64,000 nucleotides of DNA, from positions 248,001 to 312,000 of the forward strand of contig NW_026929709.1 of the NCBI RefSeq assembly GCF_032062105.1, given 5' to 3'. The stretch is from Saccostrea cucullata. Lineage: Eukaryota. The position numbers and the translations under genes were made by a program. The notes under the pieces were generated by a model. That model was not told the DNA's origin, did not search any database, and was given only the letters and a program-made list of their open reading frames with translations. Shown here one piece after another: positions 54,181 to 57,710 of this stretch. Within the stretch, counting starts at the first letter, position 1. Each line of letters begins with the position of its first letter.

Positions 54181-54589
54181 ATGTTGGGCACTAGACAACA
54201 CGGATCTACCTTTCTACAGTCAAACCTGTCTACCAGTTCTGGACAAATTCTGACCAAGTTTTACACAGACGTTACTACTGACGATTTGAATAATGTATGG
54301 AGTAACATGTCGTCTGAAGATGACGTCATTAACATGTTAACCACACATACTGATTGGGTTCTTTATAAAAGTATTATTGCTGAGGAATACATAAAGTCTA
54401 TTCTAGGACCGAAAAGAAAAGAGGATTGTTACGTCATACTAACAATGGCTTATGTAGTCATTTTCCTCACTGGACTAATAGGAAATTTGACCACTTGTCT
54501 CGTCATTGTAAAGAATGCATTCATGCACACTGTGACAAACCTTTACCTGTTCAGCTTAGCCTCCGCCGACCTGCTGATTCTTCTGCTTG
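54181..54589 (+). CDS. First coding exon (N-terminus, TM1, TM2) of a class A neuropeptide GPCR, PRXamide (pyrokinin/CAPA)/neuromedin U receptor-like
   Basis: LGPKR before TM1, IFLTGLIGNLTTCLVI, MHTVTNLYLFSLASADLLILLLG, then the phase-1 donor G|GTAAGT. N-glycosylation sequons (NLS, NMS) in the N-terminus. Confidence 0.88.
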
Positions 54590-55069
54590 GTAAGTGATCA
54601 ATGAACAATTGTCCTGTTTTTGCTTTTCACTACGTAGAATCTTGAATCACACTGCCACTCATGCAATAAAAAAACTGCTGCAAAAAGATTTCAATTTCAA
54701 GCATCATTTAGATTCCTTAAATACGGACAACACCCCTGGCATTGCGAGGGTGAATTTAATTTTAATTTGATGAACTAATTCTTAAAATATTTGAAAGTTA
54801 TTTTTTTGGCAATTCGTGTATTTGATCAATGAAGATTGTTGCCGTGTCTCTGAACACTTTATATGTTATAAGGCGATATGGACAAGCCCCAAGCAACATC
54901 GGCATGTATTTTCTTAGGATCAAATAAGGATGAATCAACAGCTGTCTTAAGGTTAGAACAATTCTTAAGAATTTTCCTCCGACACTTTCAAAAACAGCGC
55001 TTTGAAGTGAAATGAATTCTAAGTATATCTTAGGACGAATATTAGTAGGGTAGCTTCGTAAAGATGTCT

Positions 55070-55320
55070 TCTGATTCTACATTTGAAGGTCGCGTGTTCG
55101 AATCTTCTGTGGGACGTGGAGCTTAATCCTTCAAATGAAATCGTATAAACTGAGGTCCCGTGTTACAGTAACTATAGACACGATAAAGATTCCTCACTGC
55201 CCAGTTGCCCTGAGTGCATAGGTATAAATTTGATCCACCAGCATGTTGTGGCGTCTCCATATGAGTGAACCATTCTTAAGAGAAACAATAAAAAATTCTG
55301 AAAACAAGTTGCAACAAACT
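55070..55320 (+). mobile_element. SINE copy of the same family as 25787-26087, between the two GPCR exons
   Basis: GTTCGAATCTTCTGTGGGACGTGG...GAGGTCCCG...GTGGCGTCTCCATATGAGTGAA matches the 25787 copy. Confidence 0.65.
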
Positions 55321-57424
55321 AATTATCAGACCTGTAGTAAATTAAACTATAAGAGTTATTTCTCTTCATTAAGAACAACTTACAATGCAAATAGCGGAAA
55401 CACCGACGCATATATCAATGAGCCAGCTGATACATGAATGTTCCGAGATTTTATGCTTATTGCATACATGGGAAACATTAATGTTAAGGTAACATATCCT
55501 GGTTTAACTGAGGTGGGGGATTTAATTGTGTCGAAGAGTACGAAACGTGATTTCTTAATCACTGAAAGCTGCAAAGCAGCACACGTTTTATATAAAAAGA
55601 ATACTGAAGAGAAAAAAACTAGTCATACATGTATTTATAAGCTTTTTTGAACTTGCATAACTAAGCGGGTTATATTTTTTTCTGCAATATCTGCAAGGTT
55701 AATTCTGTAATATAAAAAAAACGAAAGACATGTTACAATAACTGATTATATTTATATCTCTTCGAAAAATCATTTCAGTAGGATATTTTGGAGATTATCA
55801 TTTTTTAATTATATGTTATTGCCATTGCATGAACCTTAAAGACTCCATTTGTTAATAAATATGAACGCTGAGCTTTCACACTGATAAGCATGATAAGATT
55901 TTTTTCAGAGATCACATTTCCGCTGGGGGCCAATTTTTGCTGTATGTTCCAAATAGTTGTGGTCTCAGAATCCCCTCCTCCTTCTCAAAGAAAAAAAAAA
56001 ACAAACGAAAAAAAAATATTTCGAATTGTCATTTATTCAAAACATGCTTGCCTTTTGAGATAAATGTTTTACTTAATGCTTGTTTTACAACATGGATTAG
56101 CAGAAGCACGGTACCTAATTATAACCATTTATTCGATTTATTCATAAACAAAGAATCGATTTTGTATCAATCCATAAATTCAAATCTTTGCTTGCAGCCT
56201 TGACATTTACAACTGATTTCCAGAAGCTTGATTTGAAAAATTTACAGGCACTTAAAATCACAGAAGTTGAAAACTTTAACAGATTCATTAAAAGTCAAGA
56301 CCAAACTATCCCATTACTCCCTTTTTCCTCAATTTGTTTAAAACACTCTACAGCAAAAAGTACAAAGAAAATCGCTGCAATCCTTAGCTGCAGTAATAAA
56401 CAATTAGTGCATCCTATAATACGAATAGCTAGAAAGCTGTGATTTATCTGGTTTCGATTTGAAACAAATCACACACTTGATGGGTTGATAGAATTTTCCT
56501 GAGTCATTTGAAACTTTTAATGAAACTCTCTCGTGTGAAATTAAAGTACACTCTGATATAAAACGACATTTGTATCAATTAATCAGTGTTTTCTTTTGCT
56601 GGCAAAACTTAGGTAATCAACATGAGTATTGACACGAAAAGTACAACCGACTCTCATACTGCACATCAAGTACAAAGCCTGGGGGATAAATACTAAAGAA
56701 ATCTAATTACTCTGATTAAGCCAGACTTTGTTTACCTATCAACTGATCATTGATCGAAGCTGCAGACATAAGATTTACTTGAATTGTATCTTCACTTTAC
56801 ATAGCTTATTTTAGTAGAATTTTCAAAAGAACTTTTTATGATAGCAAGAATCAAACCAAGGCCGTACGATGTATGCTGTATTTTTGATGTTATGCTAGTA
56901 AAAAGAATTTGGTTAACTGTTGTACAATATATATTTAAGAGTCATAAATAAAATTGAATACCTTACAACACAGCTCATTGGACGAGAATGTTGTTTTTAA
57001 TCAAACTAATGAGTAACACAGTTTAAACAAATGTTGTGAGAACAGCATCACTTTGAAATTAAGCAGTGTTCGAACAGGCGGGGATTCTTTTTGTAAACAC
57101 GTGCCACAGATACATACGATATGAATATTATCTAAATGTTAAGTGGCCTGTCGGGAGGAAAACATTATATTTCTATTTGTCTGTGATCTGAGCCTATGAT
57201 AGCACCATAGGACCGGTCAAATCGCTCTAAGATCAGCAACATTGATGATTGGTGAAACGAAGAAGCCATGAACATTAATTAACGAAAGTAAGATGGGCAT
57301 ACTCGATAGTGTCAACTTACAATATCTCATAAAGTTAGAGAGAGAGGACATTCATATTTATCTAGTTGACCCTGATGTGTTCGATTTCTTATGAATTAGC
57401 GCCTCAGAACCTTTGCAAACTCGT

Positions 57425-57710
57425 ATGAACCATTGCAACATGACGACGGTAACATCGATAAATGCTTCTGATAATTTGGACCAGAACTACACCAGTGTCC
57501 ACTTTCTGGTTTTATCAAAATTAGGAGAGAAGCGTAAGGATTTATTTTCTGTGGTACTTTTGTCAATTGTTTACATAGTCATTTTTCTGACCGGAAGTAT
57601 CGGTAATCTAACTACTTGTTTAGTCCTCCGGAAACAGGTATACATGCATACAGTGACAAACCAATACCTGCTGAACCTGGCGATTACGGATCTTCTGACT
57701 ATCGCTCTAG
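57425..57710 (+). CDS. Second, paralogous first coding exon (N-terminus, TM1, TM2) of a PRXamide/NMU-like GPCR
   Basis: MNHCNMTT...NAS...NYT...LGEKRK...IFLTGSIGNLTTCLVL...MHTVTNQYLLNLAITDLLTIALG, then G|GTAAGA at the same codon and phase as the 54181 exon. Confidence 0.86.

Follow-up and report, generated by a model that had tools for sequence, protein, structure and literature searches.

Receptor families of the G protein-coupled (GPCR) type usually diversify by duplication of whole genes, and most known splice variants alter loops or tails. Tandem duplicated 5′ coding exons placed before one constant 3′ set are described for the clustered protocadherins and UGT1A (PMC8373072) and for chelicerate sDscam (PMC4835542; PMC9258826). 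In these genes the variable exon encodes an extracellular or substrate-binding domain that precedes a separate constant domain, 9–21 variants are present, and promoter choice is established. Drosophila Gr39a, Gr28b, and Gr23a likewise encode seven-helix receptors, with four large alternative 5′ exons, shared 3′ exons, and exon gain and loss across species; in the Gr39a type the variable exons hold six helices, that is, most of the receptor (PMC2204066). A related peptide-receptor gene, that of the insect ETH receptor, gives two splice forms (A and B) in different neurons (PMC3510462). In the family considered here, the ALP-E junction that closes the first coding module of the oyster gene is shared by Deroceras DretNmU-Ra/Rb (PMC7749107) and Aplysia ApPRXa-R1/R2 (bioRxiv 10.64898/2026.07.28.741146). 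The slug variants, as presented in their source, differ solely at the C-tail (PMC7749107), and the strings "splic" and "exon" are absent from the main text of the Aplysia preprint (bioRxiv 10.64898/2026.07.28.741146). Other candidate precedents were rejected: the predicted exon 1 of an Anopheles allatostatin receptor is a near-identical duplicate in a different receptor (PMC4489612), and passages of PMC4237046 and PMC6585902 concern peptide precursors, not receptors.

Here, a conserved GPCR locus with variable front exons is described from the oyster Saccostrea cucullata, in which the layout of the protocadherins, UGT1A, and Gr39a occurs in a class A GPCR. We consider it likely that this is one neuromedin-U/PRXamide-type receptor gene with four tandem first coding exons (fronts A, B, C, and D) and one three-exon body. 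RNA contigs show D spliced to this body, annotation does so for B and C, and A is likely used as well; each front likely has its own promoter, through which the choice would be made. B, C, and D were already known as automatic isoforms; that annotation lacks exon A and does not recognize the isoforms as paralogous helix modules. In a search of the open literature, no description of the oyster locus or of alternative TM1–TM2 modules in a mollusc GPCR was found.

Layout of the front exons

The window analyzed is a stretch of 64,000 nucleotides (G000:C11846:248001-312000) from a 1.17-Gb assembly of 23,869 contigs. A preliminary description had placed in it two paralogous exons, each with its own ATG, an open frame, and a phase-1 donor, and both were confirmed (Table 1). 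Exons A and B each match the first 34–35 positions of 7tm_1 (E about 2e-5) and are 60% identical over 65 aa (E 4e-22), and the top match of A among solved structures is NMUR2 (E 4.9e-14). Both exon lengths are 1 mod 3 and the reading frames are open to the donor. The number of fronts had to be raised from two to four. A search of the genome with B gave 21 matches (139/139 candidates scored), of which four are on G000:C11846 and on the same strand; C and D are sited 19–21 kb past the window end.

Table 1. Features of the receptor gene. Positions are those of the window unless the contig is named; the slash in a donor marks the exon end.
Feature	Position	Strand	Remarks
Stretch before B ATG	57087..57424	+	covered by X3 57087-57304, X6 57137-57364, depth 3-4
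Front exon A	54181..54589	+	409 nt; 136 aa + 1 nt; ATG 54181; donor G/GTAAGT
Front exon B	57425..57710	+	286 nt; 95 aa + 1 nt; ATG 57425; donor G/GTAAGA
Intron after B, first part	57711..64000	+	continues past window end
Front exon C	G000:C11846 331190-331547	+	beyond window
Front exon D	G000:C11846 332487-332829	+	beyond window
Constant exons (three)	G000:C11846 344407-344946, 346110-346235, 346378-346943	+	beyond window

The four fronts are tandem paralogues, and all end at a phase-1 donor (G/GTAAG). Such a common end had been proposed for A and B, correctly as to the donor but not as to the Gly codon: the codon split by the junction is G+CT, which encodes Ala, and Gly appears only on reading through into the donor. 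The fronts also carry TM1 and ICL1 as proposed, but not the whole of TM2, since the exons stop at position 2.56 and the outer half of TM2, with E2.61, lies in the shared exon. Exon A thus contributes an N-terminus with two NxS/T sites, TM1, ICL1, and TM2 up to that position; it is one residue shorter ahead of TM1 than B–D and has Cys at 1.31. Three NxS/T sites are found in B.

In 72-residue cores the fronts are 36–49% identical to one another, with dS from 1.5 to saturated and dN of 0.30–0.51, and no DNA similarity was found in their flanks outside the coding core. Based on these values, the fronts are old duplicates and not haplotigs.

Several other elements were observed around the gene. The window contains an array of several related multi-exon genes at ~1000-30300 (-) and 49300-51800 (+), in each of which a cysteine-rich exon is followed by a beta-rich exon, in some cases by a stalk rich in Thr, and then by a single membrane helix and a tail rich in Lys; the seven array exons that were scanned gave no Pfam match at E 0.01. 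A LINE-type element at 34742-39414 (+) is broken up by frame shifts into separate ORFs, which comprise an ORF1-like frame, an endonuclease, and a reverse transcriptase. The A–B intron holds a short interspersed repeat (55100-55290) that is very abundant in presumed-RNA runs. Several upstream ATGs are present before B (57260-57395), one of which opens a 33-codon frame that is in phase with B but ends in a stop codon; the 2-base deletion found in one RNA contig hints that this frame is not conserved. Beyond the window, the B–C intron contains a retroelement (G000:C11846 ~314700-319100) with overlapping RT/RNase H and tyrosine-recombinase frames (Pfam RVT_1, Phage_integrase), which we take to be DIRS-like. 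Long degenerate tandem repeats lie downstream of the receptor gene (G000:C11846 ~350500-359400).

A single shared body

TM3–7 sequence had been reported as absent between A and B and in the 6.3 kb that follow, and none was detected by tblastn between the two exons or in the rest of the window. Over contig bases 248001-391878 (143,878 bases), the same method found the four fronts and a single set of three body exons, and no second body. The downstream scaffold, for which either one or two sets of TM3–7 exons had been envisaged, therefore holds one. A genome search with exon 2 gave one match on G000:C11846, the next-best paralogues being 54, 53, and 39% identical and located on other contigs (150 of 311 candidates scored). 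Exon 1 of a paralogous receptor occurs twice (C22982 and C6972); the C6972 copy is apparently frame-shifted upstream and is possibly a haplotig. Spliced in silico onto the body, all four fronts join in frame at one phase-1 junction and give open products of 546 (A), 505 (B), 529 (C), and 524 aa (D).

Transcripts and annotated isoforms

RNA evidence comes from eight of 24 listed runs, four examined on the body and four on the window, most of which were classed as RNA by guess. With a divergence of ~3% from the genome in exon 2, they come from a related lineage. The end of D was found directly ahead of the exon-2 acceptor in contigs of three of four runs (X1, X2, and X12, from three studies); in the raw-read run X21 the depth at this acceptor is almost zero. 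Both body introns are skipped at GT..AG, with the exon 2–3 joint present in 3/4 runs and the exon 3–4 joint in 4/4. The three D-bearing contigs are unbranched through the exon-2 acceptor, so D dominates in the samples concerned, where any other front is scarce or missing. A join of C to the body is given by RefSeq models alone and was not found in the four body-region runs. Exon B was seen in one of four runs, where an X11 contig (57482-57710, depth 2.3) stops on the donor base and continues for 22 further letters; B is also represented by full-length records. This contig has 13 differences from the genome, and nine of the ten that were listed are synonymous.

Further support is provided by annotation. 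The three RefSeq "pyrokinin-1 receptor-like" isoforms X1–X3 (XP_062620347.1, XP_062620348.1, and XP_062620349.1), which are automatic models, correspond letter for letter to the C, D, and B models, respectively, and A is missing from the RefSeq annotation of S. cucullata. Logan read-assembled records contain a full-length D-type protein (522 aa, 1625-nt contig) as well as full-length mussel B-like and scallop second-front proteins. As the contigs are only 1.6–2.8 kb long, these records derive from spliced sequences. The earlier proposal that several fronts serve one TM3–7 body beyond the window is thus upheld by the single body, by the D join in RNA, and by B, C, and D being annotated on identical bodies.

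The status of exon A is less direct. Orthologues of A are found in Crassostrea virginica (XP_078335067.1) and in Logan/ENA records, and stand-alone A-like ORFs occur in five clusters. It could be that only B, C, and D are working alternatives, and that A is silent or encodes a short two-helix protein which is not joined to the body. Exon A has zero cover in all four window runs, and no full-length A isoform occurs among the members listed for the Saccostrea clusters (6/6) or for the Crassostrea/Magallana cluster (15 of 68). Moreover, the C. virginica model (138 aa), a member of one of the five clusters, splices A not onto the body but onto an unrelated 14-residue tail, for which no match was found in G000:C11846; the sequence that carries this model is as long as the one that carries the main gene. 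However, the runs were chosen for the body and not for A, and contigs drop rare forms, so that zero cover is not read as absence. The A core is conserved between genera to a degree (76–78%) similar to that of B–D (75–83%), and A-like records keep Y1.39, N1.50, T2.39, and D2.50. The donor position is apparently kept in 49/50 A-like records, as judged from a read-through Gly-Lys or Gly-Met, the exception being the C. virginica model; these are called ORFs, in which broken alleles are invisible. A search with exon A alone found no longer relatives among 484 candidates, a failure of sensitivity, since the exon-2 search did find longer relatives. A silent or separately spliced A is accordingly regarded as rather unlikely, and a joined A as the likely case.

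Choice of front

A transcript that starts at a given front would use the strong phase-1 donor of this front and the sole exon-2 acceptor, and would thereby skip all later fronts. By analogy with the known systems, and from the colinear cover before B, promoter choice appears to be the likeliest selector. The covered stretch ahead of the B start codon (Table 1) is likely the 5′ UTR of B, and it could also be pre-mRNA or DNA. Alternatively, the fronts may be mutually exclusive internal exons spliced from a shared non-coding leader, in which case splicing factors would choose the isoform. This arrangement would fit the polypyrimidine-CAG acceptor-like sites present 2 nt ahead of the A ATG and 17 nt ahead of the D ATG, with weaker ones before B and C, although these sites came from a loose rule without a chance control. 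Against it, 57087-57364 is covered colinearly ahead of the B ATG by contigs of two studies, as would be expected of a long first exon, and the fronts are spread over 30 kb, with the B–C interval holding a retroelement. Internal exons behind a common leader are therefore a somewhat improbable alternative to separate promoters.

The encoded receptor and predicted effect of the fronts

Isoforms B, C, and D match Pfam 7tm_1 over its full length (1-260 of 260, E about 1e-51). Folding isoform B from its sequence alone gave no usable model (pLDDT 38.6); the alignment-based model shows a 7TM bundle (pLDDT 73.6) whose best match is NMUR2 (7w55). By anchor counting, six of the seven residues in the NMUR2 pocket set Y1.39, E2.61, K3.28, E3.33, R6.55, S7.38, and Y7.43 are present; 7.43 is Phe, with a Tyr at 7.42. 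These features fit a class A GPCR of the neuromedin-U/PRXamide-type group. E2.61, K3.28, E3.33, R6.55, and S7.38 are encoded by the constant exons, as counted from the same anchors. The four proteins would share these residues along with each of the three extracellular loops, the C-tail, and both ICL2 and ICL3, and with this core all four are predicted to bind one class of C-terminally amidated peptide.

Y1.39, N1.50, D2.50, and the Gq contact T2.39 do not vary among the four fronts. The fronts differ, mostly in a type-specific manner, in position 1.31, in ICL1, in the pre-TM1 helix (residues 21–33 in the B model), and in their 2–4 glycosylation sites. At position 1.31, A has Cys, B has Ser/Thr, C has Thr, and D has Met/Leu/Arg. 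The differing glycosylated tail, pre-TM1 helix, 1.31, and ICL1 may tune expression in tissues, delivery to the surface, potency, and coupling without swapping the ligand.

A change of ligand selectivity among PRXamide peptides had been suggested for the two fronts first seen. In its strongest form, the fronts would switch the ligand among myomodulin-2-derived peptides, pleurins, and sCAP, giving four receptors with different ligands. In a description of the NMUR2 structure, 19 peptide-contact positions are named, and F1.31 and Y1.39 touch the peptide network (PMC9019041). The former of these varies by front. In addition, a second front in scallops (P0005, P0121, and P0127) is far more diverged than any oyster front, has Phe for Y1.39 and Arg at 2.53, has lost TN, and is kept in two scallop genera and one read-assembled record; it is the best candidate for a true functional change. 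However, when A is aligned with NMUR2, only 2/19 of the named contacts (1.31 and 1.39) fall in the variable exon, the constant exons hold the other 17/19, and Y1.39 does not differ among the oyster fronts. Because so few contacts are variable, the fronts are likelier to tune the receptor than to switch its ligand. A ligand switch in the oyster gene is hence quite improbable, and the suggested effect on selectivity is weakened to a likely modest one.

Conservation and evolution in molluscs

The variable layout recurs in other species. S. echinata and Magallana gigas have fronts of the B, C, and D types, C. angulata and O. edulis have B, and C. virginica has C and D. Two or three fronts are found in each of two Mytilus edulis genes, in two scallops, in Ruditapes and Mya, and in a paralogous receptor of two abalones, and only one was seen in O. 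edulis (B), P. maximus, Ylistrum, Dreissena, and the abalone orthologue. In 12/12 automatically annotated isoform sets, picked for having several named isoforms (four oyster species, two Mytilus edulis genes, two scallops, two clams, and two abalones), the bodies are identical and the fronts alone differ, at the same junction. Among oysters, B, C, and D are annotated on identical bodies in several species. The X2 and X3 fronts of Mya are near-identical, as are those of Ruditapes; these pairs could be recent copies or mis-joined neighbours.

Core identity to other oyster genera is 76–78% for A, 75–81% for B, 81–83% for C, and 81–82% for D, and the variable exons are, on the evidence of such comparisons, maintained by selection across species. 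Misassembly, or whole-gene duplicates stripped of their bodies, might be considered in view of the fragmented assembly (23,869 contigs) and of whole-gene duplicates of the receptor in clams and mussels, but this is very improbable and largely refuted by the cross-species records, as independent assemblies of other genera show the same fronts on identical bodies, the fronts have no DNA similarity beyond the coding core, and they are still conserved despite saturated dS.

A tree built from 62 front cores (72 columns) places each of the four oyster fronts in a starred clade of its own that spans oyster genera. One mussel front groups with A and B (97/94), and the second mussel front, along with a scallop front, groups with C and D (89/90). 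The same groups were recovered in a tree of 30 rows with support of 88/92 and 89/84; the trees include one further relative from a 50% representative search. These groupings are suggestive of a deep split between A/B and C/D, which on the sequence data would predate the oyster–mussel split. They are no more than suggestive because AU tests (30 of 62 rows, 72 columns) rejected neither a single clade of all oyster fronts (p 0.079) nor a single clade of all mussel fronts (p 0.077). In the 62-core tree, the fronts of clams stay together, and the two from abalone form a pair. The abalone gene itself belongs to the Deroceras receptor clade and not to that of the oyster gene. This pattern suggests that this intron was the site of several independent duplications.

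The intron at 2.57 in TM2 has likely served several times in molluscs as a hinge for partial duplications. A broader reading is possible, though on balance doubtful: the mid-TM2 intron would be a recurrent hinge in molluscan PRXamide receptors, with at least two front modules older than the oyster–mussel split and further ones gained independently by clams, by scallops, and by an abalone paralogue. One gene would then give receptors that differ in peptide preference or coupling, by a natural domain swap within a class A GPCR bundle.

Comparison with known systems

Across oyster genera, four modules made of N-terminus, TM1, ICL1, and half of TM2 have been kept on an invariant core. They provide natural chimeras for testing the roles of TM1, the pre-TM1 helix, and ICL1 in peptide potency, trafficking, and G-protein coupling. 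For the deorphanization of this still-orphan mollusc clade, cloning a single isoform may miss the responsive form, and gene counts underestimate receptor numbers.

The protocadherins, UGT1A, and sDscam place their variable part before a separate constant domain, whereas the cut in the oyster gene falls in the middle of TM2 of one bundle. The oyster gene also has four variants in place of their 9–21, and promoter choice is here proposed rather than established. The deorphanized Deroceras receptor and a 532-aa Aplysia protein, which corresponds to ApPRXa-R1 solely in its length, belong to clades that are paralogous to the oyster gene. Relative to the six variable helices of Gr39a-type receptors, the oyster fronts supply 1.5 helices and leave the pocket mostly constant. 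Insect gustatory receptors, moreover, are not class A GPCRs. In the ETH receptor, the alternatives are 3′ exons that encode later helices and give two forms; in the oyster gene it is the front that varies, and it does so in four forms.
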